Shown piece by piece: positions 20,492 to 54,690 of a stretch of 64,000 bases of DNA. Positions within the stretch are counted from its first letter, which is position 1. Every line of letters begins with the position of its first letter. The position numbers and the translations under genes are program-made. Below the pieces are notes generated by a model. The model saw only the letters and a list, made by a program, of their open reading frames with translations. It searched no databases and was not told where the DNA came from. The DNA comes from Chloroflexota bacterium (GTDB taxonomy: Bacteria > Chloroflexota > Limnocylindria > Limnocylindrales > CSP1-4), in contig VBEC01000019.1 of assembly GCA_005883615.1 (NCBI GenBank), positions 45,032 to 109,031 of the forward strand, read 5' to 3'.

Positions 20492-20592
20492 CGCTACCGT
20501 TGAGGTCATGCGGCCTCAGATCTCGGAGGCGAACTGCACGGGTCGCGAGATCGTGCTCCGTCGTCACGTTGACCCGCCCAAGTGGCGCTTGT

Positions 20593-20608
20593 ACATTGTC
20601 GACAATGT
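20593..20608. promoter_or_regulatory. 16-bp perfect palindrome ACATTGTCGACAATGT (operator-like; member of a recurring ATTGTCGACAAT motif family)
   Basis: Read directly in the sequence. It lies in the intergenic region between the MFS gene and the PPOX gene. Confidence 0.55.
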
Positions 20609-20689
20609 CGGCTGGCAAGGAGCGGCCATGGTTCGAGGGTGCCCTCGCCAATGGCAGCCTGCGGCGCCACCCGGACTGGCGGTCGCCCG

Positions 20690-26449: not shown

Positions 26450-27625
26450 TCACTCGCCGGCTTCGCGCCTGGACATCGAGTCCGCGTGGGCACGGACGAA
26501 GGCCTCGTCGACATCCACGCCAAGACCAGGACCGCTCGGAATCGTCAGCCAGCCGTCCGCGGGAGCGAACGCATCCACGAGCAGCCGCTCGCGCCACGGG
26601 TTCTCGTCGACGCCAAACTCGAGCAGCGGGACCAGGCTGGCCGGCGAGGCCGTGGGATCGGGCGTGACGGCCAGGACCTGGAGGGCGGCGGCGATGCCGA
26701 TCGCCGAATTCGAGGTGTGCGGCATGCTGGCAATGCCGTAGATCCGCGCCAGGGCACCGACGAACACAGCCTCCCCGACACCACCGACGATCACCGGCTC
26801 GGGCTGGACCAGGTCGACCGCCCTGCGTGCCAGGAACTCGGCGGCTGCCGGCCGACTCATGAGCACCTCGCCACCCGAGAGCGTGATCTCGAGGGCTTCG
26901 GCAAGACGCTCGTACGCGGCGTAGCCACCCCATTGATTCAAGGGCTCCTCGAACCACAGGAACCCGAGATCTCCCAGGATCTTGCCCATCCGCACAGCCC
27001 CACCGAAGGTGTAGCCGGCGTTTCCGTCCGCCGCCAGATCCAGGCTCGACGAAAGGTCCCGGCGCAACCTCTCGAGGAGCGCCTTCTCCCTGGCGATCGG
27101 ATACCGCCCGATCCGCAGCTTCATGACGCCGAAGCCCGCCTCGACCACGGCGTTGGCCTCACGCGGCCAGGTCAGCTCCGGATCCTCTCCCTCCACATAC
27201 CCGCCTGACGCGGCATAAAGCTTCACGCGGTCGCGGACCGACCCGCCGTACAGGGTGGCGACCGAAACTCCCAGCTGACGGGCACGGAGGTCGTCCAGCG
27301 CGATGGCCAGCGCGGATCGCGCGTATGGGCCACCCCCAGCCCAGCGGACCTCCGCCTGGGTTCGCAGTATGTCGCCGGCTGGCCTGCCGAGCACGATGGG
27401 CGCAAGGTCTCGCAGGGTCTCGACAATGCCGGGTACGAGGTAACTCTCCCCCCATCCAACGACGCCGTCTCGGTCGGTCAGTTTGACCAGCACGTATTCG
27501 TGGCCGGAGGCCCACGCAATCGACGGTCCGCGACGCGGGCGGATGGGATGGCGAAGCGTAAACGTCTCGAGCCTGACCACAGATCGAGCGCTCGTGGGCG
27601 CCCGCAGCCGAACGTCAGTAGCCAC
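26450..27625 (-). CDS. mandelate racemase/muconate lactonizing enzyme (enolase superfamily) family dehydratase
   Basis: LVKLTDRDGVVGWGES capping-domain motif and a barrel carrying KLRIG, LAADGNAGYT and FEEP metal ligands. Confidence 0.9.
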   Translation of the reverse strand: MATDVRLRAPTSARSVVRLETFTLRHPIRPRRGPSIAWASGHEYVLVKLTDRDGVVGWGESYLVPGIVETLRDLAPIVLGRPAGDILRTQAEVRWAGGGPYARSALAIALDDLRARQLGVSVATLYGGSVRDRVKLYAASGGYVEGEDPELTWPREANAVVEAGFGVMKLRIGRYPIAREKALLERLRRDLSSSLDLAADGNAGYTFGGAVRMGKILGDLGFLWFEEPLNQWGGYAAYERLAEALEITLSGGEVLMSRPAAAEFLARRAVDLVQPEPVIVGGVGEAVFVGALARIYGIASMPHTSNSAIGIAAALQVLAVTPDPTASPASLVPLLEFGVDENPWRERLLVDAFAPADGWLTIPSGPGLGVDVDEAFVRAHADSMSRREAGE

Positions 27626-28652
27626 GCACGGGATCGACGACGTTGATCAATGGCCGGCCGTTCGTGAACCGTCGCAGATTCTCCGCAACGAGGTCGCGCA
27701 GGGCAGTCCCCGCCTCGGAGCCCGACACGTGGGGTGTGAGGATCGCGCCGGGCGCGTTCCAGAGAGGGCTGTCCGGGGGAAGGGGCTCCTCGTCGAATAC
27801 GTCCAGCACCGCCCCCCCCAGGCGATGTTGGGTGAGCGCCTCGAGCAGCGCGGTCTGCTCGATCACCGGTCCGCGACCGGTATTGATGATCCACGCGTCC
27901 GCCCGGAGAGCGGCGAGCACTTGCCGGTCGACCAACCCGCGTGATTCGGGCGTAAGGGGAACGGTCACGGCCACGAAGTCGGCCTCGGCCGCGGTCTCAT
28001 GCAGGCGGTCCAGGCCCACGATCTTCTCGGGAATGGAACCATCGGGGTCGCCCGTCCCGGGCGCGCGGAATGAATCGTCGACCCGCTTCTCGGGGCGGGC
28101 CGTCACCGCAAGGACCCGCATCCCGAAAGCCGCGGCAAGGCGTGCAATTTCCCGCCCTATGCCGCCATACCCGAGAATGACCAGCGTGGTCCCCCGGACG
28201 GGCCGGCCGGTGAACCGGTTCTCATCCTCGGGCCAACGGCGGTCTCGCTGCAATTCACGCCGGGCGTCTACCTGCTCGGTAACGCGCAGGATCGCGCCCA
28301 TGACGTACTGCCCGATGGCGGGCGCATAGACCCCCCGCGCGTTCGTCAAGGTCACTGCCCGCGGCCACTGTCCTGAACCGAGCAGGTGTTCAACGCCTGC
28401 GGACAGGACCTGCTGCCAGCGCAGGTCAGGCGCCTTTCGCGGGTCGCTCGGGCGGTGCTGCGCGATCAGCCCGACCACCCCCGGCCCGACAGCGTCGTCG
28501 ACCGCTTGCTGGTCCATGCCGGGGGCGAGCCAGAGCTCAAAGCCGGCATCGACGGTGTCCCGAAGCACGTCGATGTCGTGCCGGTCGAAGCGGAAGGCGA
28601 GGGCGATCTGCCCACCGCGGGTCGCCGGCTCAGACTGGGCTCGCGCGGTCAC
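27615..28652 (-). CDS. D-isomer-specific 2-hydroxyacid dehydrogenase family protein
   Basis: GYGGIGREIARLAAAFGM NAD-binding motif and catalytic-region residues R, E and H. The GTG start overlaps the MocA stop in the pattern GTGA. Confidence 0.8.
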   Translation of the reverse strand: MTARAQSEPATRGGQIALAFRFDRHDIDVLRDTVDAGFELWLAPGMDQQAVDDAVGPGVVGLIAQHRPSDPRKAPDLRWQQVLSAGVEHLLGSGQWPRAVTLTNARGVYAPAIGQYVMGAILRVTEQVDARRELQRDRRWPEDENRFTGRPVRGTTLVILGYGGIGREIARLAAAFGMRVLAVTARPEKRVDDSFRAPGTGDPDGSIPEKIVGLDRLHETAAEADFVAVTVPLTPESRGLVDRQVLAALRADAWIINTGRGPVIEQTALLEALTQHRLGGAVLDVFDEEPLPPDSPLWNAPGAILTPHVSGSEAGTALRDLVAENLRRFTNGRPLINVVDPVRGY

Positions 28653-29701
28653 GCCGGGCCGGGCGAGAGCGGGAAGGTCACGACTCGATGCTCCGCGGCC
28701 GATGTCGACGCGGCCTGGGCCATCTCGATGGCTGCCCTGCCGTCGACCCCGGTGATGCGCGGCGGACGGCCGCCGCGAAGGTCGTCGACGAAGCCCTGGA
28801 CTTGCCGGGCAGTGTTCGCAACTCGACGGGGATCGCGAGGCTTGAACTCCGGAATTGTCCAACTTGGGAGCTCCCAGACCCGCACGTCGCGCTTGCCCGT
28901 CACCAGCTCCACGCGGTCGAGGTCCCAGAAGATCGAGCCCTCGGAGCCGACGACCAGGTACTGGTTGTTCCGCCCGGTCCCAAGGCCGGACGGGGGGACC
29001 TCGTAGCACAGCAGGATCTGGGCGACGACGCCATTGGAGAGGCGGAACTGCACGCAGGCGGTCGGCCCCTCGAGCGGCAGGCCCGTGAAGTTCTCGTAGT
29101 CGGAGTAGACCCTCACCGCCTCAGCGCCCGTGAACCAGCGAATGGCATCGCAGCAGTGAGAGCCCCAGTCCAGAAAGGCGTCGCCCTCGCCCGGGAGGTA
29201 TGACCAGTGGTTGCCGGGATCGATACCCAGGCCCGGGATGACGCTCATCGGCCGCAGGTAGCGGATCTCGCCGATGAGGCCCTGGTCGACGTACTCCTTC
29301 GCCCGCATCGACATCTCCATGTGGCGGGTCTGCTTGGCGATGGTGAGCTGGACGCCAGCAGCCCGGCTGGCGTCGATGATCAGGTCGCACTCGGCGACAT
29401 TGAGCGCCATCGGCTTTTCCAGATAGACGTGCTTGCCAGCCGTGGCTGCCGCGAGTGCCAAGGGCAGATGCGTCGAGTGCGGCGTGGCAATGATCGCGAC
29501 GTCGACGTCGGGTCGATCGAGCAGGGCTCCGACCGAGGGCGCCGCAGGCACTCCGAACTCGCCGGCCAGCGCGTCGGCTCGTGACCCGAGTGCGATCGCG
29601 ACAAGCCGCCCGCCAGTCACCTGGGTCGTCAGCGCATCGCCGTAGACCCTGGCCATGTTGCCGGACCCAAGGATCCCAAATCCGACGTCGTCGCCAGTCA
29701 T
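28649..29701 (-). CDS. Gfo/Idh/MocA family oxidoreductase
   Basis: Starts MTGDDVGFGILGSGNMA and has an EKPMALN motif. Confidence 0.9.
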   Translation of the reverse strand: MTGDDVGFGILGSGNMARVYGDALTTQVTGGRLVAIALGSRADALAGEFGVPAAPSVGALLDRPDVDVAIIATPHSTHLPLALAAATAGKHVYLEKPMALNVAECDLIIDASRAAGVQLTIAKQTRHMEMSMRAKEYVDQGLIGEIRYLRPMSVIPGLGIDPGNHWSYLPGEGDAFLDWGSHCCDAIRWFTGAEAVRVYSDYENFTGLPLEGPTACVQFRLSNGVVAQILLCYEVPPSGLGTGRNNQYLVVGSEGSIFWDLDRVELVTGKRDVRVWELPSWTIPEFKPRDPRRVANTARQVQGFVDDLRGGRPPRITGVDGRAAIEMAQAASTSAAEHRVVTFPLSPGPA

Positions 29702-29711
29702 CGCGTCCTCG

Positions 29712-30941
29712 TCATGCGTACTCGATGTTCCCGGGTCGGAAGGGATATGCGGCGATGGTCTCGGGCAGGAGTGTCACACCGAGGCCCGGTGCGGTTGGCG
29801 CCTCGAGCATCCCGTCGACGAGCCGGGGCGGGTCGATGAGCAGCTCCTCGCGGATGTTGTTGGGTGCCAGAGCGTACTCGACGTACCTGGCATTTGGGCT
29901 GGCGAATGCGACGTGGAGGTTGGCCATGAACCCGGGCCCGACTGCCCCCCCGGTGTGCACGATCAGGCCTGCATGGTGCTCCTCGGCCATCGCGGCCACA
30001 CGACGGCAGGGTCCCACCCCGCCGACATGGGTGGCATCAGGCTGCACATAGTCGAGGGCGCCCATCTGCAACCACTGGGCGAACTCCGCCTCACCTGTGA
30101 GGCACTCTCCGCCGGCGATCGGGACACGAGTCAGCCTCCGAAGCTCGGCGTATCCAGCCGGGTCGTCATAGCGCAGCGGCTCCTCGTAGAAGAGGAGATC
30201 GAATTCCTCGATCGCGCGCGCCAGGTCGAGGGCCGTGCGGCGAGACCATGGCTCGCGCACCTGCACCGCGTGGCCGTCGATCGCCAACTCGACTCCTTGC
30301 CCGAGGGTCGCGCGCAGCCCCGCGAACTTGGCTCGTTCGTCCTCTATTCGGTCACCCGTCGTGCCGGCATGCCACGTGCCATACGGCGGCGGGACGTTCC
30401 CGGTCCACAGCCCTCCCGGCCGATCGGTGAAACCGGTACCGAGCTTGAGAGCTCGAAAGCCCAAGCCGATGTAGAGCTGCGCCTGCTCCACGGTTTTTTC
30501 GACTGGCCAGGTTCCGGTACCACCCGACGCGTACAGGGGGAGCCGGGCGTGGGCCGCTCCGCCCAGCAGCGCATGGACCGGTTTACTGGCCGCCTTGCCG
30601 GCGAGGTCCCAGAGTGCCATCTCGACTCCCGACAGCACCGAGACCGCCAGCCCGACGCGGCCCCACCATAGCGAGCGCTGGTACAGCTCATCGTAGACTC
30701 GTTCGGGCTGGAGGGGGTCCAGCCGCAGGTCCACCAGCAAGCTGCGGTAGTAGTCGACCAGGGGCGGCACGACCTCCGGGCAGAAGTAGCCCATCACCGT
30801 CTCGCCGAGTCCGTCGAGCCCTTCATCCGTCTCGACCCGGATCAGGGCTGCGGTGCGCACGAACTCGGTTCCCTGCACCCAGAACGGATCGCCGGTCCAG
30901 GGCGCGGTGATCAGGATGGTCTTGAGGTCAGTGACCTTCAT
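29712..30941 (-). CDS. enolase superfamily (MR/MLE, D-galactonate/rhamnonate dehydratase-like) enzyme
   Basis: Starts MKVTDLKTILITAP and has ALWDLAGKA, AIDGH and FYEEP motifs. Confidence 0.9.
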   Translation of the reverse strand: MKVTDLKTILITAPWTGDPFWVQGTEFVRTAALIRVETDEGLDGLGETVMGYFCPEVVPPLVDYYRSLLVDLRLDPLQPERVYDELYQRSLWWGRVGLAVSVLSGVEMALWDLAGKAASKPVHALLGGAAHARLPLYASGGTGTWPVEKTVEQAQLYIGLGFRALKLGTGFTDRPGGLWTGNVPPPYGTWHAGTTGDRIEDERAKFAGLRATLGQGVELAIDGHAVQVREPWSRRTALDLARAIEEFDLLFYEEPLRYDDPAGYAELRRLTRVPIAGGECLTGEAEFAQWLQMGALDYVQPDATHVGGVGPCRRVAAMAEEHHAGLIVHTGGAVGPGFMANLHVAFASPNARYVEYALAPNNIREELLIDPPRLVDGMLEAPTAPGLGVTLLPETIAAYPFRPGNIEYA

Positions 30942-30975
30942 ATCGTCAAGCGGACAGCGAGTCCGGCCGCTCGTG

Positions 30976-32016
30976 TCATGCGGGCGGGCGGATCACGATA
31001 TCGCGTGGTGTCGCGCTGGTGGCCGCCACCCCACAGAGTGCCGCATCCTCGGCCAGCTCTGCGGCGATCGAGCGGAGGACCCGCCGGACGCCTGCCGTCC
31101 CGCCGAGCGCCAGGCCCCACATCACCGGGCGACCCACCGTGACCGCGCGTGCCCCCAGTGCAAGCGCGGTCAGGGCGTCCGAGCCGCTTCGGATCCCGCC
31201 ATCGAGATAGATCTCAGCCGACTCACCGACCGCGGCCACGATCTCCGGCAGGGCATCGATCGTCGCGACCGCCCGGTGGAGCTGACGGCCGCCATGGTTT
31301 GAAACGATGATGCCGCGCGCCCCACTGTTGACCGCTCTTCTGGCATCGTCGGGGTGGAGGATGCCCTTTGGAACGATCGGTAGCGTGGTCCTGGCCGCCA
31401 GCCACTCGAGATAGGACCATGTGTTGCCCGCATCGAGGCCTGGCGACTCCTCGAAGTGGCCGAAGCTGAGGCCCGCAGGAAGCCGGAAACCCGCCCGAGG
31501 CGGCGTGTGAGCGACCCCGATCGGCGTGTTCACGAGGGGCACGATCGCGCGGCATCCTGCCGCTTCCGCCCGCTCCACGACCCGGGCCAGGGCGTCGCGA
31601 TTATCCCAGTTGTAGAGCTGGAACCACAGTGTCGCGTCCGGCGCGGCGCTGCGAATCTCCTCGACCGAGGTCGTCGCATTCACGGCGACGATCAAGGCCG
31701 CTCCCACTTCGGCGACCGCACGCGCCGTTGCAATCTCACCTTCTTCGTCCACCACCCGCTGGAGGGCCAACGGAGCAACCAGCAGCGGGACCTCGAGCGG
31801 AGTACCGAGCAGGGTGACCGCAGTGGATACAGTAGAAACGTCTTCCAGCACGTGCGGCCTCATGCGCCACCGGCGGAAGGCAGCAACGTTGTCAATCGCC
31901 GATTGTTCGTCTCCGGCTCCCGATCGGATCCATTCGTAGACCGGGGTTTCGAGGACGAGCCGGGCGACGTCGCCGAAGCTGTCGAGCGGGATCCTATCCA
32001 GCAGCCGGTCGCTCAC
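30976..32016 (-). CDS. FMN-dependent alpha-hydroxy acid oxidase/dehydrogenase (glycolate oxidase / L-lactate oxidase family)
   Basis: WFQLY, VSNHGGRQL and DGGIRSGSD motifs are present. Confidence 0.9.
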   Translation of the reverse strand: MSDRLLDRIPLDSFGDVARLVLETPVYEWIRSGAGDEQSAIDNVAAFRRWRMRPHVLEDVSTVSTAVTLLGTPLEVPLLVAPLALQRVVDEEGEIATARAVAEVGAALIVAVNATTSVEEIRSAAPDATLWFQLYNWDNRDALARVVERAEAAGCRAIVPLVNTPIGVAHTPPRAGFRLPAGLSFGHFEESPGLDAGNTWSYLEWLAARTTLPIVPKGILHPDDARRAVNSGARGIIVSNHGGRQLHRAVATIDALPEIVAAVGESAEIYLDGGIRSGSDALTALALGARAVTVGRPVMWGLALGGTAGVRRVLRSIAAELAEDAALCGVAATSATPRDIVIRPPA

Positions 32017-32141
32017 GACGACATGACCCGAGCGGTCACAATTTCCTCCCCAGAACGCTCAACTGCGAGCGCGACTGGATACTCCTGGCACCCTTCAGCG
32101 GAGTGTAGACAATCCTTTGCTGGCCACACCCCCATGGCTGG

Positions 32142-34148
32142 CTAGCCAAAGCCGGAAGCCTGGTCGCTCCGGTCGGCGGCCAGGTGGCGATCCAGCCACG
32201 TGTCGATGATCGACCTGCGGGCGGCGCGCCGGCTGGGGCGGCCGAAGAGATTCACCAGGTGGCCTTCGCCCGGGATACGCACTTGGCGAACGTCCCGACC
32301 AAGGCTTCGAAGGGCGCCGAACAGTTCATCGCTCTGGCTGGTTGGGCAGTTCTGATCAAGCTCGGCGTGCAGGATGAGGAGAGGCGTTCGGATGCGATCG
32401 ACATACCGGATGGGTGACCGCGTGAGGTAGGCCTGCGGACGGTTCCAGGGCGTCCCGCCGAGCTCCGAGCGCCAGAAGGCCGGCCCGCTCGGGCCAGCGT
32501 ACGCGGCTACGAGGTCGCTGAGGCTGTTCTCGGTCACGGCGACCCGAAAGCGGTTCGTGTGGGCAACGGCCCAGTTCGTCATGTAGCCGCCGTAGCTCTC
32601 GCCCATGATCGCCAGTCGGCTCGGATCGACGCTGGCGGTGGCGATTGCCGACTCGACGAGGCCCATGAGGTCACGGTAGTCGCCGCCGCCCCAGTCGCCG
32701 CGAATGGAGGTCGCGAATGCGGCGCCGTAGCCCTGGCTGCCGCGGGGATTGCCGGTCAACACCGCGTAGCCCCGGGCCGCGACGCGCTGCACCTCCAAGG
32801 CGAAGCGTTCTCCAACCGGGTAGTGAGGCCCGCCATGCACCTCCACGATGAGGGGCACGGGCCCATCGGCCCCGGGGGGCCCGGGTGGCAGCGTGAGCCA
32901 GCCCGACACTTCAAATCCGTCGGGGGACTGGTGCCGGATCGATCGTGGGAGGCTGAGGTCCAAGTCACGCATCCAGCTCTGGTTGACGCGGCTCAGCGCG
33001 CGTTCGTCCATCCCGTCGCCGCGAACGACCGCCACCTCGCCGGGATCGAGCGGCGTGGAGGCGACGAATGCAACGACGTCGGCGGCTCGGGCGACGGCGA
33101 ATGCGAGGCATGCCCGTTGCCCGTCAACTACGCGTCGCCGGCCACCATCGCGCCCGAATGCGTCCACGCCGCTGACGCCTCCGTCGGCGTAGGCGACAAG
33201 GATGGAGCGCCCATCGGCCGACCAGGCGAGATCGGGCGTGCCGAAACCGCGCTCGTCCTCGCCACGAACAACCAGCCCCAGGCTTCTGTCGATGTCGCTG
33301 ATGCGTTCGGCAGGGCCACCGCGAGCATTCACCACCCAAAGCTCGACGTTCTCGCCCTGCGCGTCGGCATGGCGATGGCCAAGGAAGGCGATCTCGGAGC
33401 CGTCCGGCGACCACGCGAGTGCTCGGATCGGTCCGGCCTCCGTAACGAGTCGCCGCCGGCCCGAGCCATCGGGGCGAACGATCCACAGGCCAGTTCGAGT
33501 GCTCCATTCCCGGTCCTGGCGGTGGCTCGACAGGAAGGCGATGAAGTCGCCGCGCGGCGACCACGTGGCGGCCCACTCCTCCCAGGGCTCCTGCGTCAGG
33601 CACGTCGCGGGCCCGCCTCGCAACGGCTGAACCCAGACGCGCGTCCCGGCGGGTCTTGGCCGAACTCCGACAGCGTCGACGCGGTAGCCCATCGATTGAA
33701 TCTCGTACGGTCGATCGTTGCCGGGTGGCGAATCGGGCTGCAGGACGACGGCAACCAGGCGCTCTCCGTCGGGCGCCCACTCGACAGAGCGAACGACGCC
33801 CGTAACCCTCGCGGGAGCGCGAGCAGCGCCAGCATCCACATCGAGGACTCTGCTCGTCGTCTGATCGCCACGGGTCGAGACGACAGCGAGCCGCCGTCCG
33901 TCAGGCGCCCATCGAGGTGCTCGATCGGCGACGCCCATCGAGGTAAGACAGCCCCCCCGGCTTCCGTCGATCTCCCGCCAGTGGACCTCGTAGGCCATTC
34001 GATCGGCCTCAGGGTCGAGGTACGAGACCTCGAAGGCTATACGTCGTCCATCGGGCGACAGGTCGGGGTCTCCGACCCAACGAATCCGGTACCAGTCGTC
34101 GGCTCCGACGACCCGACCTCGCTCCTGCATCGATCGCGTTCCAGTCAA
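32142..34148 (-). CDS. S9 family peptidase (prolyl oligopeptidase / acylaminoacyl-peptidase-like) with an N-terminal beta-propeller
   Basis: Catalytic GESYGGYMT, a Ser-Asp-His triad segment, and no signal peptide. The start overlaps the ADH stop in an ATGA pattern. Confidence 0.9.
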   Translation of the reverse strand: MTGTRSMQERGRVVGADDWYRIRWVGDPDLSPDGRRIAFEVSYLDPEADRMAYEVHWREIDGSRGGCLTSMGVADRAPRWAPDGRRLAVVSTRGDQTTSRVLDVDAGAARAPARVTGVVRSVEWAPDGERLVAVVLQPDSPPGNDRPYEIQSMGYRVDAVGVRPRPAGTRVWVQPLRGGPATCLTQEPWEEWAATWSPRGDFIAFLSSHRQDREWSTRTGLWIVRPDGSGRRRLVTEAGPIRALAWSPDGSEIAFLGHRHADAQGENVELWVVNARGGPAERISDIDRSLGLVVRGEDERGFGTPDLAWSADGRSILVAYADGGVSGVDAFGRDGGRRRVVDGQRACLAFAVARAADVVAFVASTPLDPGEVAVVRGDGMDERALSRVNQSWMRDLDLSLPRSIRHQSPDGFEVSGWLTLPPGPPGADGPVPLIVEVHGGPHYPVGERFALEVQRVAARGYAVLTGNPRGSQGYGAAFATSIRGDWGGGDYRDLMGLVESAIATASVDPSRLAIMGESYGGYMTNWAVAHTNRFRVAVTENSLSDLVAAYAGPSGPAFWRSELGGTPWNRPQAYLTRSPIRYVDRIRTPLLILHAELDQNCPTSQSDELFGALRSLGRDVRQVRIPGEGHLVNLFGRPSRRAARRSIIDTWLDRHLAADRSDQASGFG

Positions 34149-35254
34149 GAGGCGTCGTACGCCAGAACGACGGTCGGTGGTCGATCCTCTGCCTGCAGCA
34201 GGTCGTAGGCCTCGGGGGCCCGATCGAACGGGACCGTCACCGGCGAAAGTGGCGCCACCTTCACCTTGCCTTCATCGAGCAAGCGCAGGAACGCGGCCTG
34301 GTTGCGGTTCTCGGTCCAGCGCACCCAGCCGATGGGGTAGTCACTGTTGCCTTCCTCGTACACCGGGTCATAGCGGCCCGGCCCGTAGGCACGGACCGGC
34401 CGGATAGTCACCTCGTTCTCGAACATGCGCTGGCGGTCGATCTGCCAGCCGAACTGACCCAGTGCGACGACATTTCCCCTCTGCCGGCAGAGATCGAACG
34501 AAAGGTTGAGGGGTTCTTCCGATTCAGTCTGGACCGCGAGGATCACCGAATCGGCTCCGAACCCGTCGGTGGCCCCCCGGACGATTTCCAGCGGGTTATT
34601 GCGGCGAGGATCGTGGACATCAGGGATTCCGAGCTCCCGCGCAAGTTGCAACCGTCGCCCATCGAGATCGAAGCCAATGACCCGGAGGCCCGCGGCCCCT
34701 GCGATCTGCCCGGCAAGCAGCCCGAGGAGGCCAAGGCCATAGATCACGACGGTCTCGCCGAACTGGCAGCGGGTCTCGCGCACGGAGGCCATTCCGATCG
34801 CCCCAAGCGTCACGAAGGCGGCGTCCCGCAGGGGGACCTGATCTGGAACCCGGACTGTCAGGTTGCGCGGGACCGCGACTCGCTCGGCGTGATGAGCACA
34901 CTGACTGCCGGAGCACGCCACGGCGTCGCCCGGCGACAGGTCGAGCACGTCGGCGCCTACTGCCAGCACGCGCCCGGCGAGACTGTAGCCAATCGAGAAG
35001 TGACCCGGCAGGACAGGCCGCGGCAGGGGTCCCCGTCGAACGCCAGCGTTTCGGATCTTGGGCCAGTGCGGAGGGTCGCCCGGATACTCGCTCGCGGTGA
35101 ATGTGGGGTCGCCGGAGCCTTCGATGAAGTACCGTTCCGTTCCGGCGCTGATGGCCGAGAAATGGGTCTGGACGAGGACGTCACCGGCGCGCAGCTCGGG
35201 CTCCGGCACGTCGCGTACCACCGCCCGCCCGCCCGCCGCGAGGACGCGCTTCAT
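34145..35254 (-). CDS. zinc-binding alcohol dehydrogenase (MDR) family protein
   Basis: An N-terminal GroES-like domain with the Cys/His zinc ligands, and a GLGLLGLLAGQ Rossmann motif. Confidence 0.85.
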   Translation of the reverse strand: MKRVLAAGGRAVVRDVPEPELRAGDVLVQTHFSAISAGTERYFIEGSGDPTFTASEYPGDPPHWPKIRNAGVRRGPLPRPVLPGHFSIGYSLAGRVLAVGADVLDLSPGDAVACSGSQCAHHAERVAVPRNLTVRVPDQVPLRDAAFVTLGAIGMASVRETRCQFGETVVIYGLGLLGLLAGQIAGAAGLRVIGFDLDGRRLQLARELGIPDVHDPRRNNPLEIVRGATDGFGADSVILAVQTESEEPLNLSFDLCRQRGNVVALGQFGWQIDRQRMFENEVTIRPVRAYGPGRYDPVYEEGNSDYPIGWVRWTENRNQAAFLRLLDEGKVKVAPLSPVTVPFDRAPEAYDLLQAEDRPPTVVLAYDAS

Positions 35255-35375
35255 GACCGCCGAGCTCGATTCCGGAGGATGCCGGCCAGGCCCGCCGAGG
35301 CGATCCCGACTTGCGGGTGGCCGCGTGCGCCGGACGCCGCTCGGGCAGCCGCCAGAGGCATCACCTCGACCCGTA

Positions 35376-36566
35376 TCAGGCCGTGACCGCGACGGGGTGT
35401 GCCGAGCTCGAAACCAACCCGCTATCTACCGCCCGCTGACGGATCTGCTGTTCGTCCGGCTCCACACCCAATCCTGGCCCGCTCGGGATCTCGAACCAGC
35501 CTTCGACCATCGATAGCGGCCGGGTCAACAGGTCGGTCCTGAACGGGTTCTCGGTGGTGTCGTATTCGAGCAGCGGGGCGAACGTCGAGAGGGACCTCGT
35601 CGGGTCGGGCAGCAGCGCAAGCACCTGGAGGGTCGCTGCGAGCATGATCGCACCGCCCCACATGTGGGGGACGCACCCGACACCGCGGAGCTGAGCGAGA
35701 TCGGCGATGAGCTGGGCCTCTCCAACGCCGCCGCAGATCGACACGTCCGGCTGGACGATGTCGAAGATCCCACGTTCGAAACAGGCCTGGGCTTCCCTCC
35801 GATCGGCGATGCCCTCCCCGCCGGCCAGGGCAATGTCGAGCGCATCGTGGATGCGCTCGTAGCCCGCGTAGCCGTCTTGAGGCGCTGGCTCCTCGAACCA
35901 GACGAAGCCGAGGCGTTCCAGCCCATGACCCATTTCTATTGCCTGCGGGAGCGTGTAGGCAGCGTTCCCGTCGGCCATCAGCTCGATGCCGGGCGGTAGC
36001 CGCGACATGGCTGTCTCGATGGCGGCAAGCTCGTGTCTGATCGGGTGGCGACCGACGCGCAGCTTGATGGCCCTAAAGCCCTCGGCGGCCAGCGATGGCA
36101 GGTCGCGCTGCCAGGTCAGCGTCGGGTCGACCTCGCGCTCGCCGGCGCCCTCGCCCTCGACCTCGTATCCGGCACTCGAGGCGTAAGCTCGAACCCGATT
36201 GCGGACCGGCCCGCCGTACAGCCCCGCCAGCGGCATCCCGAGCTGCCGCGCCCGCAGATCATCCAGCGCGATCGACATCGCGCTCGTCGCGAGATTGCTG
36301 CCCGAAGCCGCGGCCACGTCACGCCAGATCGAATTGGCCGCGAGTGGGTCTCGAGCGACCACCGTTTTCGCCGCACCTGCAATCGCGGCAGTAACGCCCG
36401 GTTCGAGGTAGGTCTCACCCCAGCCTGTGATTCCATCCGAGTCGGTGAGCTTGACGAGGACGCACTCCCGCCTTCGGTAGGTCCAGATCGACGGGCCGCG
36501 CGGCGCCGACATGGAATGGGTCAGGACGAACCACTCCGCCCGTTCGATGCGAGAGCCCCGGCTCAC
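35376..36566 (-). CDS. enolase superfamily (MR/MLE) family dehydratase
   Basis: LVKLTDSDGITGWGETY, KLRVG, LMADGNAAYT and FEEP motifs. The GTG start overlaps the ABC ATPase stop in the pattern GTGA. Confidence 0.85.
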   Translation of the reverse strand: MSRGSRIERAEWFVLTHSMSAPRGPSIWTYRRRECVLVKLTDSDGITGWGETYLEPGVTAAIAGAAKTVVARDPLAANSIWRDVAAASGSNLATSAMSIALDDLRARQLGMPLAGLYGGPVRNRVRAYASSAGYEVEGEGAGEREVDPTLTWQRDLPSLAAEGFRAIKLRVGRHPIRHELAAIETAMSRLPPGIELMADGNAAYTLPQAIEMGHGLERLGFVWFEEPAPQDGYAGYERIHDALDIALAGGEGIADRREAQACFERGIFDIVQPDVSICGGVGEAQLIADLAQLRGVGCVPHMWGGAIMLAATLQVLALLPDPTRSLSTFAPLLEYDTTENPFRTDLLTRPLSMVEGWFEIPSGPGLGVEPDEQQIRQRAVDSGLVSSSAHPVAVTA

Positions 36567-37741
36567 GCGTTGATCCGCTCGCCGGTCTCGAGTGCGAAGA
36601 GATGTGTCCGCCCGGCAACGATCTCGCCGGTGACCGGCTGGCCGATCTCGACCCCGAAGTCGGGGGCGGCCCGCGCGACGATGGTCGCCTCGCCGGCGAC
36701 CAGTTCGACGAACGTGTCGGAGCCGATCGGTTCCTTGAGCCCGACAGTCGCCGTGAAGCTGCGGCCCGAGCCGGTCCCGCCGTTCGGCGAGATGCGGACG
36801 TCCTCAGCACGGACGCCGAGGGCGACCTGCGTGCGATCGGTCTCGGCCAAGCGGAGCTCACCAGGCCGTCCGACCCGGACACGGATCGTGCCGTCGTCCG
36901 AGACGAACTGGACGGCGTCGGCGTCGGCCTCGAGTCGGCCGCGCACCAGGCTCATTTTCGGCTTGCCAACGAAGGTGGCGACGTACATGTTGCGTGGCCG
37001 GCCGTAGACCTCGGCCTGGCTCCCGTACTGGACGAGCTTGCCCTCGCTCATGACGGCGATGGCGTCGGACAGCGTCATCGCCTCCTCCTGGTCGTGGGTG
37101 ACGAACACGCTGGTCGTTCCGAGTTGCAGGTGGAGGTGCTTCACCTCCGTCCGCATCCGGCTGCGCAGCGCGGCGTCGAGGTTGCTGAACGGCTCGTCGA
37201 GCAGGAACACCAACGGCTGCTTTACGAGGGCTCGACCGAGCGCCACCCTCTGCTGCTGGCCGCCCGAGAGCTGACTCGGCTTCCGGCGGAGCAGGTGCGC
37301 GATGTCGAGCATCTCGGCGACGACTTTGACGCGCTGCTCGATCTCCTGCCTGGAGCGGCGCTGGAGCTTGAGGCTGAAGGCGATGTTGTCGAACGCCGTC
37401 ATGTGCGGGTAGAGGGCGTAATTCTGGAAGACCATCGCCATCCGTCGCTCGTTTGGCGGGACGCCGGTGATGTCCTGCTCCCCGAGATGCACGCTGCCCG
37501 TATCCGGCTGATCCAGACCGGCGATCAGGTTGAGCGTCGTGCTCTTGCCGCACCCGGAGGGCCCGAGCAGGGTCACGAACGAGCCAGCCGGGATCTCCAG
37601 GGTAAGCTCGTCGACGGCGCGGACCTTCCCGAAGTGGCGCCCAAGACGGTCGAGGCGGAGCGAGGCGCTGCTGATTATCGTCGCTCTCTCCAACGACGGG
37701 CTGGCGCACATGGCGAACGGCGGCGCCGGCAGCGTCGCCAC
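36563..37741 (-). CDS. ABC transporter ATP-binding protein (carbohydrate importer, MalK/UgpC-like)
   Basis: Walker A (GPSGCGKST), LSGGQQQRVALGRAL, Walker B (LLDEP), and a C-terminal TOBE-like domain. The start is either GTG 37741 or ATG 37711. Confidence 0.9.
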   Translation of the reverse strand: MATLPAPPFAMCASPSLERATIISSASLRLDRLGRHFGKVRAVDELTLEIPAGSFVTLLGPSGCGKSTTLNLIAGLDQPDTGSVHLGEQDITGVPPNERRMAMVFQNYALYPHMTAFDNIAFSLKLQRRSRQEIEQRVKVVAEMLDIAHLLRRKPSQLSGGQQQRVALGRALVKQPLVFLLDEPFSNLDAALRSRMRTEVKHLHLQLGTTSVFVTHDQEEAMTLSDAIAVMSEGKLVQYGSQAEVYGRPRNMYVATFVGKPKMSLVRGRLEADADAVQFVSDDGTIRVRVGRPGELRLAETDRTQVALGVRAEDVRISPNGGTGSGRSFTATVGLKEPIGSDTFVELVAGEATIVARAAPDFGVEIGQPVTGEIVAGRTHLFALETGERINA

Positions 37742-37755
37742 CCACCCCGGGTGGG

Positions 37756-37775
37756 GTAGATTGTCGACAATCTAC
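37756..37775. promoter_or_regulatory. 20-bp perfect palindrome GTAGATTGTCGACAATCTAC immediately upstream of the ABC ATPase gene; operator-like
   Basis: Read directly in the sequence. It is the best copy of the recurring ATTGTCGACAAT motif. Confidence 0.6.
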
Positions 37776-37940
37776 GACCGGCCCGATGCCGCGTCAAGGT
37801 TATGCCAGGCGACCGTCCAGTGGCAGTGCTCAGGGCTCCAGCTGTGGGACACCCTGCTGACCCACTGACCGGCACACCCGGGCATAGAAGACGGCGCCCA
37901 CGTCGCCGTGAGCGCCGTCCAATGCGCGAGGAACGGAGCG

Positions 37941-39386: not shown

Positions 39387-39480
39387 GGCACCCCACTCCT
39401 CGAGCGTCGGGCCGGTCCAAGCCGCCCCGAGCGGCCCGTAGTATGACACGGCTCGAGAGAGGTGTTTCGCGTGTCACGGC

Positions 39481-40629
39481 TCATGATCCGCGTGCCGATT
39501 CGACGGCCCTGGCCATCGCCCGTAGCTCCGGCAACTTGCTCTCGGCCGGATTCTCGTCGAGGGCTTCGGCCACCTCCTGCAGGGGCCCCATCGACCCGAT
39601 CCTGACGGCTTCTCCCAGCCGCAGGCACTTGCGATGCGCGAAGTGCCGGCCGATCAGGCCCAGGCTGCCGTTCGGGGAGCAGCCGACACGGTCGGAACCG
39701 CGCCCTTCCTGGGCCGCCCAGGCCATTGCCCAGACGTGGACCTCCGTTTCATCCAACCTTTCGGTCCTGGCGTCTGCGCTCCCGACGATGATTCCGCGGG
39801 CGGGTGGAACCGCGTCCAGGAACCGCCAGGCGGACGGCCCTGCGAGCACATCCACCAGGTAGCTCCGGTAGGGCAGCGCGATCAAGTCTTCGTAACCGGC
39901 CGGATCGATCTGGCCCCCCCACAGGCCGAGCGAAAGATGCGGCCCATCGTCGCTTTCGAGTCCCGCGAACAGCCGTTCATTCGCGGCGCGGAACGCCCGG
40001 AACTCGGCGATGTCCTCGCCGATTTGCAGGGTGATCGGTTCGTCGATTTCGACCATTGGGCACCCGGCCGCCGCCAGGGCCAGGATCTCCAGGTTGAGCG
40101 CTTCGCCCAGCTGCACGGCGAGGTCGGCACGACCTTTCGGGTCGGTTTCGGCGAGTGCCGCAAGGCTGTACGGGCCGACCATGGTCTGCTTGACGGGGAG
40201 ATCTGTCTGGCCGGCGGCGAATTGCCAGTCGCGGACTGTGACGGGACGCGTCCACAGGACCGTATCCTGGGCGATGGGACGGGTAGCAGGCTCCCCGTCG
40301 GGCAAGGTCGTGTGGTCGCCCGCCGCGAGACCCTCGAGGCCGCGGATCCAGGGAATGATTCGATCGTGCGCTCGCACGCCACCTTCACCCACGATCCCCA
40401 ACTCCACGACGGCCATCTCGCCCAGGATCTCGCGAACGAACTCGTCCGCGACGGCGCGAAATCCGTCCGCGTCGAGGTCGCCTTCGAGGAGTCTCCGTTC
40501 GGCGTCGCCCAGGAGATCGGGCTGGGCGGGGAGGGGTTTTCGTGAGTAACCGCCGGCAAACGTGGCAAACAAGCGAACCTCCCGGGCGCGACGTGCGGTT
40601 CGATCTCGATCAACCTCGATCGCGGTCAC
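39481..40629 (-). CDS. cobalamin-independent methionine synthase (MetE C-terminal domain / UroD-like) family protein
   Basis: MVEIDEPITLQ and a C-terminal CSPNGSLGL region align with the MetE catalytic-domain pattern (IQIDEPA ... DCGLKTR). The gene is embedded between transporter genes, and its start is uncertain. Confidence 0.7.
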   Translation of the reverse strand: MTAIEVDRDRTARRAREVRLFATFAGGYSRKPLPAQPDLLGDAERRLLEGDLDADGFRAVADEFVREILGEMAVVELGIVGEGGVRAHDRIIPWIRGLEGLAAGDHTTLPDGEPATRPIAQDTVLWTRPVTVRDWQFAAGQTDLPVKQTMVGPYSLAALAETDPKGRADLAVQLGEALNLEILALAAAGCPMVEIDEPITLQIGEDIAEFRAFRAANERLFAGLESDDGPHLSLGLWGGQIDPAGYEDLIALPYRSYLVDVLAGPSAWRFLDAVPPARGIIVGSADARTERLDETEVHVWAMAWAAQEGRGSDRVGCSPNGSLGLIGRHFAHRKCLRLGEAVRIGSMGPLQEVAEALDENPAESKLPELRAMARAVESARGS

Positions 40630-40714
40630 GCGCCAATCTCGTCCACCGGACGCCAGGTCGTGGGCCTTGGGGCCCGCGCGATGACGGCCACCGCGCGACG
40701 CCCGCGGCTCGTGT

Positions 40715-42634
40715 CTACCCCTTGACCAGCCCCTCGGTGAGGCCGGTGATGATGCGGCGATGGAACAGCAAGACGAGGACCAGGCACGGAATAACCGCAA
40801 CGATCCCCCCGGCGGCCAGGAGGTCCGGCGGCGGTGATTCGTTGAGCCGGAACGGGAAGCTCGTGATGACCGTGACCAGTCGCGTGATCGTGACGGCATT
40901 GCGGTTGCCGAGGATCACCGCGAACAGGAACTCGTTCCACGTGCCGATGAGGATCAGGATGGCTGCGGCGGCGATGCCCGGCCGGGCCGCAGGAACGGTG
41001 ACCCGGAATAACGTCCCCAGCCGCGAGCACCCATCGATCCGGGCCGCCCGCTCGAGGGCGATCGGCACCTCCGAGAAGAAATTGCGGAGCAGCCACGTGA
41101 CCAGGGGCAGCCAGAACGCGACGTTAACGATGACGAGCGCGGCGACCGTGTCCGTAAGGCCGAGGATCTGGAAGATCTTCAACACCGGGATCGCCATGAC
41201 GATCGCCGGGACCATCTGCATGAAGATGAGGATCGACAGGACGATGCGCTTGCCTGGCAGCTGGAACCGCGCCAGCGCGTACGCAGCTGGAGACGCCAGC
41301 ACGATGACGAACAGGGTTGTCAGTACGGCGTTCAGAAGGCTTACCACGAGGGAGCCTTGCCAGTGAACGTCCTGAATGATGCGGGTGTAACCGTCCAGCC
41401 ACAGGCTGGTGACCGACAGGTGCGGCGGCATATGCGACAGGGCCTCGTCGGTCTGCAGGCTCGTCACGATGATCCAGATGATCGGCGCGACAAAATAGAA
41501 CAGCAGCAGTCCGGCGCCGACCCCGAACAACACCCGACCCGCGCGCGGTGAAACCCTGATGAGCGACCGTCGCGGCCGCTCATCAGCCTCTGAGCGCGAT
41601 CGCGGCTCGGCGAGTGCCCTCGGGACGCCGGTCAGCCGCAGGGAGGTTTGCATGGCTGACGCCGCCAACTCGGAGTCCTCATCGATTGCCGGAGCGCGGT
41701 CGCGGCGCCGCCGGACCTGGACCAGCAGGAAGAGGAGGCTGAACAGCACGATGAGGCCAAACAGGACCACTGTCACCGTGGAGGCGTAGCCGAAGCTCAA
41801 GTTCTGGAACGCAAGCTCGAAGATCGCGTAAATCAGGACGTAGGTCGACCGTCCCGGCCCGCCGTTGGTGAGCGTGTACAACAGGTCGAAGACCTGCAGG
41901 CCAATGATCACTTGGAGAATGCCGACGATGATCAGGGTGGGCCGGATCGCGGGCAGCGTGATGAACCGGAACGATTCCCAGGACGTCGCGCCGTCCATCT
42001 TTGCCGCCCGATACAAGGTGCCCGGGATGGTCTTCAGCGCCGCCAGTAGCAGCACCGCCAGGAGCGGGACGCCCCGCCATGCCTGAGCGATGATCGCGAT
42101 CGTCACGGCCTGGCCCGTGTTCTGGAGCCAGTTGACAGGGTCCTGGATCAGGCCGAAGCCGATCAGGATCCCGTTCGCGATCCCGAAATGCGTATCGAAA
42201 ATGATGCGCCAGAAGATGCCGGCCACGACCGAGGCGATGGCCCACGGGAGGAGTACCGCCATGAAGAAGATGCTCGATCCGCGGAACCCGCGATTGAGGA
42301 CCAGGGCGGTGACCAAGGCCAGGGGCAGGGTGACGGCCGTGGTCAGTGCGGCAAGGACCACCGTCCGGGGGATGGCGTCGAGGATCTCCTGGTCGTGGGG
42401 CAGCCTCGTCAGGTAGTTGTTCAGGCCGACGAAGCGCACGAACTCGTCCTTGGCGAGCTCGATCCGGAACAGGCTGAGGCCGAAGACGCTCAGGATCGGC
42501 GGCGCGACGATGGCCGCCAGGAGGAGCAGGCCGGGGATCGAAACGAGCAGCGCGAACTTGCGTTCGCTGAGCCGGTCAAGTCGCCGGGAGATTCGGCCCG
42601 CACCTCGACCGATCGTCGCGGCCCCTGCGGCCAT
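40715..42634 (-). CDS. fused ABC transporter permease (MalF/UgpA-like TMD followed by MalG/UgpE-like TMD in one ORF)
   Basis: Two EAA-loop motifs (AAKMDGATSWESFRFITLP and ERAARIDGCSRLGTLFRVTVP) are separated by a charged linker, with no stop codon between them. An alternative TTG start is at 42673. Confidence 0.8.
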   Translation of the reverse strand: MAAGAATIGRGAGRISRRLDRLSERKFALLVSIPGLLLLAAIVAPPILSVFGLSLFRIELAKDEFVRFVGLNNYLTRLPHDQEILDAIPRTVVLAALTTAVTLPLALVTALVLNRGFRGSSIFFMAVLLPWAIASVVAGIFWRIIFDTHFGIANGILIGFGLIQDPVNWLQNTGQAVTIAIIAQAWRGVPLLAVLLLAALKTIPGTLYRAAKMDGATSWESFRFITLPAIRPTLIIVGILQVIIGLQVFDLLYTLTNGGPGRSTYVLIYAIFELAFQNLSFGYASTVTVVLFGLIVLFSLLFLLVQVRRRRDRAPAIDEDSELAASAMQTSLRLTGVPRALAEPRSRSEADERPRRSLIRVSPRAGRVLFGVGAGLLLFYFVAPIIWIIVTSLQTDEALSHMPPHLSVTSLWLDGYTRIIQDVHWQGSLVVSLLNAVLTTLFVIVLASPAAYALARFQLPGKRIVLSILIFMQMVPAIVMAIPVLKIFQILGLTDTVAALVIVNVAFWLPLVTWLLRNFFSEVPIALERAARIDGCSRLGTLFRVTVPAARPGIAAAAILILIGTWNEFLFAVILGNRNAVTITRLVTVITSFPFRLNESPPPDLLAAGGIVAVIPCLVLVLLFHRRIITGLTEGLVKG

Positions 42635-42901
42635 GAAGGATCCGCTGCCTCCTCCGAATGGGGTCGTCGGCAATCATCATCGGGCCGGTAGGACGTGTCA
42701 AACCGATCACGCGCAGTCCAGAGGCATGCCTCTCGCTGCAAGGCCTCCTGTGCCCTGTCTCGTGGCGTTCGGCCAGACGGGCACGGCCGCTCGCCAGATG
42801 GGGTAGTGGGCTCATGGGGCACCCGCGAGGCGATTTGACCGCGGGGTATCCTGACGCGGCGGTCTGGCTCCATGAGAGCCTGCGGCGGAGGGCGATGCTC
42901 C

Positions 42902-49178: not shown

Positions 49179-49253
49179 GAGCGGCGACGACCCTGCTTTC
49201 ACAACAAAAGCCGGTGCGATAATCGCGGGGCAACGGTCGCCCAGGAGGTGCAG

Positions 49254-52076: not shown

Positions 52077-52180
52077 CAGCCGGAGGACATGGTCTGGGCG
52101 GGCATGATCACCTCGATCTGAAGCGGATTGCGCGACCGGTCGAGGTGCTGTCAGGCGCGCAGCCCGCACCGCTGCGCCGT

Positions 52181-52194
52181 GGATTGTAGACAAT
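52181..52194. promoter_or_regulatory. near-palindrome GATTGTAGACAATC (one central mismatch versus GATTGTCGACAATC) in the DapA-like/enolase divergent promoter
   Basis: Read directly in the sequence, 5 nt upstream of the enolase ATG. Confidence 0.45.
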
Positions 52195-52198
52195 CGAC

Positions 52199-54670: not shown

Positions 54671-54690
54671 GTACATTGTCGACAATCTAC
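54671..54690. promoter_or_regulatory. operator-like site GTACATTGTCGACAATCTAC (12-bp perfect palindromic core) upstream of the aldehyde dehydrogenase gene
   Basis: Read directly in the sequence. A half-site CTACATTGTCGAG follows at about 54793-54805. Confidence 0.55.

Follow-up and report, generated by a model that had tools for sequence, protein, structure and literature searches.

What does a protein related to the methionine synthase MetE do inside a sugar-type ATP-binding cassette (ABC) transporter, and do the catabolic genes that follow it form one operon for one substrate? Both questions are raised by a stretch of 64,000 nucleotides (nt) with a G+C content of ~67% (hereafter, the window), which comes from an uncultured soil Chloroflexota bacterium (Limnocylindria; Limnocylindrales; CSP1-4; GCA_005883615.1, VBEC01000019.1:45,032-109,031, forward strand). 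Within it, an unbroken chain of 12 consecutive minus-strand genes runs from an ATG at 42634 down to 26450, where the next gene is convergent (Table 1). An earlier note on this DNA had described a single 16-kb mega-operon of 13 co-directional genes beginning at 42673. The common direction and the gene families that it named for the chain agree with our Pfam results, whereas the count should be 12, which is also the number of genes in its own list, and 42673 is a TTG upstream of the permease ATG. Our analysis inclines us, by a modest degree, to read the region as part of a multi-operon regulon under probable GntR/FadR-type control, through which a sugar, sugar acid or small glycoside would be imported and degraded by an oxidative non-phosphorylative route. 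Within this palindrome-marked regulon, which as sampled is confined to Limnocylindria, lies a conserved three-gene unit that is new here and consists of a fused permease, a divergent substrate-binding protein (SBP) and a zinc-less protein with the MetE fold.

The transporter and its MetE-fold partner

The permease at the head of the chain has an N-terminal half like MalF/UgpA and a C-terminal half like MalG/UgpE (the NCBIfam halves are UgpA/MalF and MalG/GlcU), and its 639-residue start is the same as that of the gene call in L005, one of the related loci that we designate by L numbers. The ATPase ends in an OB/TOBE domain and matches NCBIfam UgpC at 372 bits, below the cut-off of 432. By Pfam and NCBIfam, the parts of a carbohydrate uptake transporter 1 (CUT1) importer are therefore present, namely two MalF/MalG-type membrane domains and a MalK-type ATPase with a C-terminal regulatory domain. 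The SBP reads as a lipoprotein with an RR motif, a LAAC lipobox and a Ser/Ala/Pro linker, and has no match in Pfam or NCBIfam. When searched against the PDB with phmmer, it returned sugar SBPs only, the best being 6lce (beta-arabinobiose-binding protein; 3e-9, residues 175-381), followed by weak sequence matches to raffinose, trehalose/maltose and UgpB SBPs. It is probably a divergent family-1 (CUT1-type) sugar SBP, recognisable only by such weak PDB sequence matches.

A scan for homologs of the MetE-like protein, with one genome per species, found 79 loci, nearly all of them in Chloroflexota metagenome-assembled genomes (MAGs) labelled Limnocylindrales or Limnocylindria; the homologs are almost all metagenomic and share its length of 363 residues. 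Every ortholog of at least ~46% identity (~25 ortholog loci) adjoins a homologous fused permease, 61-84% identical to that of the window, and the Pfam-less SBP. Distant zinc-less paralogs (≤45% identity) have an unrelated, conserved housekeeping context with rhomboid, SRAP, two-component system, cyclase and Mo-hydroxylase genes, which offers no functional clue. In the reverse test, the SBP alignment was searched against metagenome contigs, and loci with at least ~1.1 kb of sequence on the relevant side were counted as informative. The MetE-like gene stood beside the SBP gene in 17 of 17 such loci, with no counter-example. Overall, the two genes are same-strand neighbours in 40/40 informative loci, which stem almost entirely from Limnocylindria MAGs (median gap ~98 nt), with the SBP gene first in 31 and the MetE-like gene first in the 9 that make up the window's clade, and the identities of the two proteins co-vary across adjacent pairs (Spearman rho 0.69). 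The claim of the earlier note that the MetE-like gene goes with the transporter is thus borne out; a failure of the two to co-occur elsewhere, which it had named as a point that would count against it, was not what we found, because they are together in every informative related locus. In a library of 1.84 billion representative proteins, the orthogroup forms three 50%-identity clusters, and 157 clusters match at ≤1e-30. A literature search on Limnocylindria, ABC transporters and methionine synthase returned nothing relevant.

Two further observations concern the arrangement of this unit. L003 carries two complete permease/SBP/MetE-like units in tandem, with opposite internal orders. The protein collection also holds a 583-residue product (P0046, P0019; source 'src') that is 100% identical over 61% of the MetE-like query and combines BPD_transp_1 with Meth_synt_2; it is probably a gene call that runs from the permease C-terminus into the MetE-like open reading frame (ORF; compare the 472-residue ORF at 39481-40899), and not a true fusion.

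Sequence similarity to MetE is limited to the N-terminal half of the barrel (family profile E 5e-23). Pfam Meth_synt_2 matches at 34.1 bits (cut-off 21) over profile positions 35-178 of 324 only, and the NCBIfam methionine synthase equivalogs score at most 61.5 bits against cut-offs of at least 392. In a Foldseek search with an AlphaFold2 model (pLDDT, the predicted local distance difference test score, 96.2), the top 32 matches were all MetE-family proteins (TM 0.66-0.76), and Thermotoga maritima MetE matched at TM 0.74 with ~16% identity. The predicted structure thus confirms a MetE-type (beta-alpha)8 barrel fold. Because the local hidden Markov model alignment to MetE ends before the zinc ligands, we compared the zinc site by way of MAFFT global alignments that took in E. 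coli MetE (L008; H641, C643, E665 and C726 verified) and canonical short MetEs from the loci. In T. maritima MetE, the zinc ligands are H618, C620, E642 and C704, and homocysteine and folate are contacted by Glu462, Asp577, Met468 and Trp539, of which Asp577 and Glu462 bind the alpha-amino group of homocysteine and Trp539 stacks on folate (PMC539065). In the MetE-like family, the E. coli His-x-Cys motif H641-M-C643 is replaced by H212-L-S214, invariant in 34 of 34 members, E665 by D241, and P-D-C726-G by an invariant P-N301-G302-S303. The loss of the zinc site holds in all 34 members, H212 alone being retained as the same residue, and both cysteines are also gone in all full-length top clusters of the 1.84-billion-protein search. 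Of the homocysteine and folate contacts, only Asp577 persists (as D177); Glu462 aligns with G64, Met468 with R71 and Trp539 with L140. Because both zinc cysteines and the homocysteine and folate contacts have been lost family-wide, the protein is, judged by these residues, not a methionine synthase, and with the zinc site gone its resemblance to MetE does not speak for methionine or methyl metabolism. The family nevertheless has 49 invariant columns, and its conserved polar residues (K128, D177/E178, H212/S214, D241, D267 and N301) cluster at the C-terminal ends of the barrel strands; among the representative-library clusters, R71 and N301 are specific to the transporter-linked clade.

Two other loci pair a zinc-less paralog (HVSLAI ... 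SPSTSL) with a canonical short MetE (HAITHICYG, DLEMT, DPDCGLK) immediately downstream of it (L025:3667-6033; L026:3386-5725). The pair resembles a split two-gene form of the two-barrel MetE architecture, and the arrangement hints at the origin of the zinc-less family; among the loci read, it was not seen in the transporter-linked clade.

Gene modules and a shared palindrome

In transcription order, the junctions of the chain measure +142, +94, +199, +50, +121, -4, +125, +34, +10, -4 and -11 nt. Three of the 11 overlap and six are gaps of 50-199 nt, and the many overlapping starts and stops reported earlier were thus an overstatement. Related loci resolve the chain into modules: permease/MetE-like/SBP, ATPase-Eno1, ZnADH-S9 and FMNdh-Eno2-MocA-2Hacid-Eno3 (names as in Table 1). 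The window's strain is also represented by L005 (a JGI soil metagenome) and L088 (WNGD01015991.1), which match this region at 99-100% identity. In L010 and L022, the ATPase gene leads the transporter operon directly behind a palindromic operator, described below, and is followed by the permease and the MetE-like/SBP genes; FMNdh is the first gene of a five-gene block that is kept there as a separate, operator-preceded FMNdh-Eno2-MocA-2Hacid(-Eno3) unit (Eno2 68-71% identical in both, Eno3 59% in L022), and ZnADH-S9 is absent. L004-type loci read ATPase(-) / FG-GAP-PAP2-permease-SBP-MetE-like / 2Hacid(-) / MocA-Eno-ATPase-SDR-PNPOx, and in L001/L003-type loci the transporter is flanked by DHDPS, enolase and a mannose-type phosphotransferase system (PTS). 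Module order and strand differ among L004, L010, L022 and L024. Given gaps of up to 199 nt, a promoter-like site and an operator at 37756-37797, and the rearrangement of modules in relatives, the idea of a single 16-kb operon is not supported; the chain is probably not one dedicated polycistron but a mosaic of modules shuffled in relatives. Genes for PTS enzyme I, HPr, a SorC regulator and a complete mannose-family PTS (EIIA-D) come after the transporter/MetE-like unit in the closest clade outside the species (L001, L003 and the P0014 contig), where the palindromic operator is missing.

The ZnADH and S9 genes are always paired and, of ~20 distinct lineages, occur only in the window's strain (L005, L088) and in L030, where ZnADH is 71% identical, the pair is convergently placed and the MetE-like protein is ~44% identical. 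Because it is present in these two lineages only, the pair is an accessory module outside the conserved system. In L030 (CAWFPC010000012.1), a long-read MAG, the permease, SBP, MetE-like, ATPase and S9 genes are all split into several frames, which probably reflects long-read assembly error rather than pseudogenes; such loci escape coverage filters.

The 199-nt gap before the ATPase gene contains the perfect palindrome GTAGATTGTCGACAATCTAC, which overlaps the -10 element of a sigma-70-like match (TTGACG-17-TAGATT, 37769-37797). There are four strong sites in the window against 0 expected by chance, and the nearby DHDPS and ALDH genes share the operator found before the ATPase gene. One further candidate, in the gap before FMNdh, was rejected because its score falls inside the shuffle range; strong sites do precede the FMNdh genes of L010 and L022. 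An extended consensus, cGTAGATTGTCGACAATcTACc, follows from 65 exact occurrences of the core motif ATTGTNNACAAT, of which 61 are in related loci and 4 in the window. The core occurs in 23 of 87 genome loci, all 23 of the transporter type and always at promoter-like positions, and in five SBP-anchored metagenome loci; none of the distant-paralog loci has it, and it is missing from L001/L003/L009/L011-type loci. A terminator scan gave 3 matches against 6.2 expected, all within genes.

The only transcription factor that Pfam scans of the window ORFs found is a GntR/FCD protein. In L010, a homolog 52% identical to it and the ATPase-permease-MetE-like-SBP operon are transcribed divergently from either side of the operator, and in L117 a 61% identical homolog is divergent from the permease. 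The GntR/FCD protein is thus a candidate for binding the palindrome. By analogy with IR1 of DgoR, which represses D-galactonate catabolism and belongs to the GntR/FadR regulators (PMC11705089), the palindrome probably points to a sugar-acid regulon of the GntR/FadR type.

Table 1. Positions of the chain genes, operator-like and promoter-like sites, and two neighbouring genes in the window
Feature	Position	Strand	Basis or remark
FG-GAP/UnbV_ASPIC (CRTAC1-like) beta-propeller protein, membrane-anchored	43022..45112	+	Pfam; divergent from permease
Sigma-70-like promoter match TTGACA-17-GATGAT	42673..42701	-	Consensus match, ~40 nt upstream of permease ATG
Fused ABC permease, 639 aa	40715..42634	-	Pfam BPD_transp_1 in 2 stretches
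Zinc-less MetE-fold protein, 363 aa	39481..40572	-	Meth_synt_2-like; TTG start behind GGGAGG ribosome-binding site
Substrate-binding lipoprotein (SBP), 481 aa	37941..39386	-	RR motif, LAAC lipobox; Pfam-less
Perfect 20-bp palindrome GTAGATTGTCGACAATCTAC, putative operator	37756..37775	.	Position weight matrix (PWM) score 38.5; shuffles at most 15.7
ABC ATPase, MalK/UgpC-like	36563..37741	-	Pfam ABC_tran, OB_MalK, TOBE_2
Eno1, enolase superfamily	35376..36512	-	Pfam MR_MLE_N + MR_MLE_C
Zn-ADH/MDR-family dehydrogenase (ZnADH)	34145..35254	-	Pfam ADH_zinc_N
S9 peptidase (prolyl-oligopeptidase family), beta-propeller	32142..34148	-	Pfam Peptidase_S9 + PD40
Degenerate operator-like site GCGGAGTGTAGACAATCCTT, rejected	32098..32117	.	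125-nt gap before FMNdh; PWM 12.6
FMN-dependent alpha-hydroxy-acid oxidase/dehydrogenase (FMNdh)	30976..32016	-	Pfam FMN_dh 2.8e-100
Eno2, acid-sugar dehydratase-like, enolase superfamily	29712..30941	-	Pfam MR_MLE
GFO/IDH/MocA oxidoreductase (MocA)	28649..29701	-	Pfam GFO_IDH_MocA
D-isomer-specific 2-hydroxyacid dehydrogenase (2Hacid)	27615..28652	-	Pfam 2-Hacid_dh_C; GTG start overlaps MocA stop (GTGA)
Eno3, enolase superfamily, last of chain	26450..27625	-	Pfam MR_MLE
Operator copy	20591..20610	.	Between MFS transporter gene and tandem PNPOx-family genes; score 29.1
GntR/FCD (FadR-subfamily) regulator	49179..49982	+	Pfam GntR + FCD
Operator copy	52179..52198	.	Between divergent DHDPS-family and MR_MLE genes; score 29.2
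Operator copy	54671..54690	.	Between divergent 2-Hacid_dh and ALDH genes; score 36.6

Sugar-acid chemistry and competing explanations

No protein of the cluster reaches an NCBIfam equivalog cut-off, and the enzyme names therefore hold at the family level only. The best PDB matches of Eno1 are 4ggb/4hpn (6e-56; D-galactaro-1,4-lactone cycloisomerase of A. tumefaciens) and 5olc (3,6-anhydro-D-galactonate cycloisomerase of Zobellia), and the same structures are the best matches of Eno3. Eno2 resembles GalD/AraD/ManD-type dehydratases, with NCBIfam GalD, AraD and ManD all below cut-off. MocA is IolG-like (133 bits, cut-off 355) and has 60-74% identical homologs in most related loci, 2Hacid is likewise below its NCBIfam cut-off, the ALDH scores 376 against GucD (cut-off 770), and the DHDPS-family protein has no NCBIfam match. 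The dehydrogenase, enolase-superfamily, DHDPS and ALDH families are nonetheless all present and joined by the operator, although none reaches an equivalog cut-off. No recognised glycoside hydrolase was found in the window or in relative loci with Pfam annotations read, BNR_2 proteins in some of them aside. The non-phosphorylative sugar or sugar-acid route suggested by the earlier note is thus plausible at the family level, given the cycloisomerase likeness of Eno1 and Eno3 and the shared operator, but no equivalog backs it; the flanking Amidohydro_2, FAH, DHDPS, ALDH, Asparaginase_2, two PALP and two aminotransferase genes that it listed are all there by Pfam. At that level, the chemistry speaks for a sugar, sugar acid or small glycoside as the imported compound, which would then undergo oxidative non-phosphorylative catabolism.

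In the mechanism that we propose, the importer would bring in the substrate, and the zinc-less MetE-fold barrel would be a cytoplasmic enzyme for a substrate-specific first step (cleavage, ring opening or isomerisation), with a remodelled site of His/Asp/Asn/Ser/Arg where MetE has its Zn-thiolate site. MocA dehydrogenases, the Gci/DauB-like enolases, 2-hydroxyacid dehydrogenases, the FMN oxidase and the co-regulated DHDPS-family and ALDH enzymes would then lead to central metabolites, and the ZnADH-S9 pair would be an accessory insertion in this lineage that is not diagnostic of the substrate. A bolder proposal, which we regard as possible but doubtful, is that the zinc-less MetE-fold protein is a new type of enzyme in which the methionine-synthase barrel has been repurposed to act on a carbohydrate or sugar-acid conjugate, for instance by cleaving, ring-opening or isomerising it, that it replaces the missing glycoside hydrolase, and that it is locked to the ABC importer as a Limnocylindria-specific import-and-process module.

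Several points weigh against the proposed regulon and mechanism. The intergenic region between the permease and the FG-GAP gene has no operator copy or clear palindrome, and the transporter core may therefore be regulated differently from the rest; the site before FMNdh is degenerate in the window; and the sigma-70-like promoter scan is statistically weak (2 matches against 1.2 expected). The substrate and the sequence of reactions are guesswork, since every enzyme falls short of an equivalog cut-off. The recurrence of ZnADH-S9 in a second, distant lineage (L030) makes a loose functional link possible. Finally, we infer catalysis by the MetE-fold protein from its invariant columns and from the polar residues at the strand ends, and the protein could be non-catalytic.

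That the barrel is indeed non-catalytic, serving as a cytoplasmic binding or accessory subunit (a sink, chaperone or importer regulator), is in our judgement unlikely. We know of no cytoplasmic non-ATPase accessory subunit of CUT1 importers, which we count against this explanation, and the conserved polar residues cluster where the active sites of TIM barrels lie. Moreover, the restriction of R71 and N301 to the transporter-linked clade suggests a tuned ligand site. A subunit role would nevertheless fit a gene that stands strictly beside the permease and SBP genes, and not the enzymes, in two gene orders, and a protein that has lost every canonical catalytic feature. There is also a precedent in long MetE, whose N-terminal barrel is a duplicate that has lost its zinc site yet persists as a supporting part (PMC539065).

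The substrate might instead be a glyco-amino-acid, Amadori compound, opine or N-acyl amino-sugar-acid, with the 12 genes forming one polycistron and the S9 peptidase and MetE-like protein handling the amino-acid part. This would suit a cytoplasmic peptidase (it has no signal peptide) whose serine motif, GESYGG, is intact, which is translationally coupled to ZnADH by a 4-nt overlap with its stop, which lies downstream of the operator-controlled ATPase promoter and which recurs with ZnADH beside the system in L030; its NCBIfam Dpp5-like score is 184 bits, below the cut-off of 900. It would also suit neighbours such as a beta-aspartyl-peptidase-like protein, a hydroxyaspartate/threonine dehydratase-like PALP protein, aminotransferases and amidohydrolases, and the retention of D177, the counterpart of the MetE Asp that binds the alpha-amino group of homocysteine. 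In addition, close transporter relatives adjoin genes of the mannose-family PTS, which includes fructoselysine/glucoselysine and glucosaminate systems. However, the second ligand of the amino group in MetE, Glu462, has given way to Gly, and S9 is missing from ~90% of orthologous loci, among them L010 and L022, where the chain is otherwise retained. The SBP is probably a carbohydrate-type protein of family 1 and not of family 3 or 5, as for opines or peptides, and the large gaps and the internal promoter and operator speak against a single transcript. Among the Pfam results for window ORFs of at least 170 residues, there was no SIS/FrlB, no PfkB/FrlD kinase and no FAD opine oxidase, that is, no FrlB/FrlD-type or opine-oxidase-type family. 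The peptidase had been taken as a clue to such a substrate; with the pair confined to the window's strain and L030, S9 is accessory and the glyco-amino-acid/Amadori/opine idea is left unsupported, and the lack of the hallmark families among those ORFs and the probably sugar-type SBP likewise go against it. We consider it quite improbable.

It is very unlikely that the MetE-fold protein still belongs to methionine or methyl metabolism, be it as a split partner of a short 'core' MetE or as a demethylase for imported O-methylated sugars. The zinc-less paralogs directly upstream of a canonical short MetE (HxC, Glu, PDCGLK) in L025 and L026, and the weak Meth_synt_1 match in some homologs, would agree with such a role. 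In the loci read, however, a canonical MetE never stands beside the transporter-linked clade, whose neighbours are sugar-acid enzymes, and both cysteines, Glu462, Met468 and the folate-stacking Trp539 have all been replaced. An Rfam scan of the whole window found no riboswitch (S-box included), T-box or other RNA family at the gathering threshold. Lastly, an arrangement without functional meaning, in which co-direction reflects chance gene packing, might be read from the shuffled modules and the several gaps of >100 nt, but it is hardly credible and already disfavoured by the comparative data, since the same families recur around the transporter in ~25 genomes, share one operator that is absent elsewhere and include a MetE-like/SBP adjacency without exception in 40 pairs.

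Should the proposed regulon hold, it would concern abundant, uncultured soil and freshwater Chloroflexota, the Limnocylindria, whose carbon sources are poorly known, and it offers handles that can be tested without culture: a sugar or sugar-acid importer specific to the lineage, an operator of 20 bp that marks the regulon across many MAGs, and a conserved MetE-fold protein. On the residue evidence, the automatic annotation of this protein as 'methionine synthase' in these MAGs is wrong, and its correction matters for metabolic reconstruction, for example where methionine or B12 independence is predicted. Should the barrel prove to be a carbohydrate enzyme, it would show instructively how an active site can be repurposed within the MetE/UROD fold.

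Neighbouring genes and known systems

The FG-GAP/ASPIC gene adjoins the transporter in 13 genome loci, and the only PDB sequence match of its product is human CRTAC1 (9etn). Its N-terminus (43022-43700) crosses the membrane several times and contains His-rich motifs in repeated form (HMLEHVVQ, YHEIEHIVK, HFINLIWLHF), and in L004, L017 and L024 a PAP2/vanadium-haloperoxidase-like gene lies between it and the permease; a literature search on CRTAC1, ASPIC and haloperoxidase gave no bacterial function. Downstream of the operator copy at 20591-20610, a PNPOx-family ORF with a putative start (20582-21652, +) begins with a long stretch of low complexity that includes the tandem peptide repeat PISPTEPISPTEPISPAEP; another gene of this family comes next (21555-22049), and L004-type loci likewise have PNPOx genes. 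Further away are three neighbouring genes with RibD_C (dihydrofolate-reductase-like) domains (126-3152), two Zn-ADH/MDR genes after them (3321-4292, -; 4457-5488, +) and a gene, apparently unrelated to the cluster, for an 847-residue protein with PPDK_N and PEP-utilizer mobile domains (6170-8713, +), which is PEP synthase-like or rifampicin-phosphotransferase-like. In all, the window holds five enolase-superfamily genes (26450, 29712, 35376, 52190 and 62086), three BNR_2 genes (47097, 49972 and 58385), four each of MocA, GNAT and PNPOx, and two each of PALP, Amidohydro_1 and aminotransferase genes. So high a density of paralogs within 64 kb has the look of a large catabolic island made up of several divergent units.

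Compared with known systems, the importer resembles CUT1 importers such as MalEFGK2 and UgpBAEC in its MalF/UgpA- and MalG/UgpE-like domains, its MalK/UgpC-like OB/TOBE ATPase and a lipoprotein SBP that is probably akin to family-1 disaccharide binders. Unlike these, it has both membrane domains fused into a single 639-residue protein, an SBP too divergent for Pfam or NCBIfam, a MetE-fold gene as the invariable third member of the permease/SBP unit, and an ATPase gene of variable position. The MetE-fold protein shares with MetE and the short 'core' MetE/Mes (Meth_synt_2) proteins the (beta-alpha)8 barrel together with its extensions, the IDEP motif and the His of the zinc site. It differs in that the zinc cysteines have become Ser and Gly, the Glu ligand Asp, Glu462 and Met468 Gly and Arg, and Trp539 Leu, in having an extra conserved C-terminal helical extension of ~40 residues, and in that its gene sits in a sugar-transporter operon without methionine-type regulation. 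As with E. coli DgoR, there is a GntR + FCD gene in the locus, and the palindrome overlaps a promoter-like site and has TTGT/ACAA half-sites resembling those of IR1 (PMC11705089); its spacer is, however, 2 nt (TTGT-CG-ACAA) rather than the 3 nt of IR1, and it extends to 20 bp. Finally, the enzymes parallel the oxidative uronate and aldonate pathways, namely Udh-Gci-KdgD-KGSADH in Agrobacterium, Weimberg/Dahms-type routes and DauB in Zobellia, in that dehydrogenases, Gci/DauB-like enolases, DHDPS-family and ALDH genes are linked by one operator. In contrast to those pathways, none of the window's enzymes scores as an equivalog, and the lactonase candidates (Amidohydro_2) are ~10 kb off and have no operator copy, whereas three to five enolase paralogs, an FMN oxidase and two 2-hydroxyacid dehydrogenases are present, which suggests a different or broader set of substrates.

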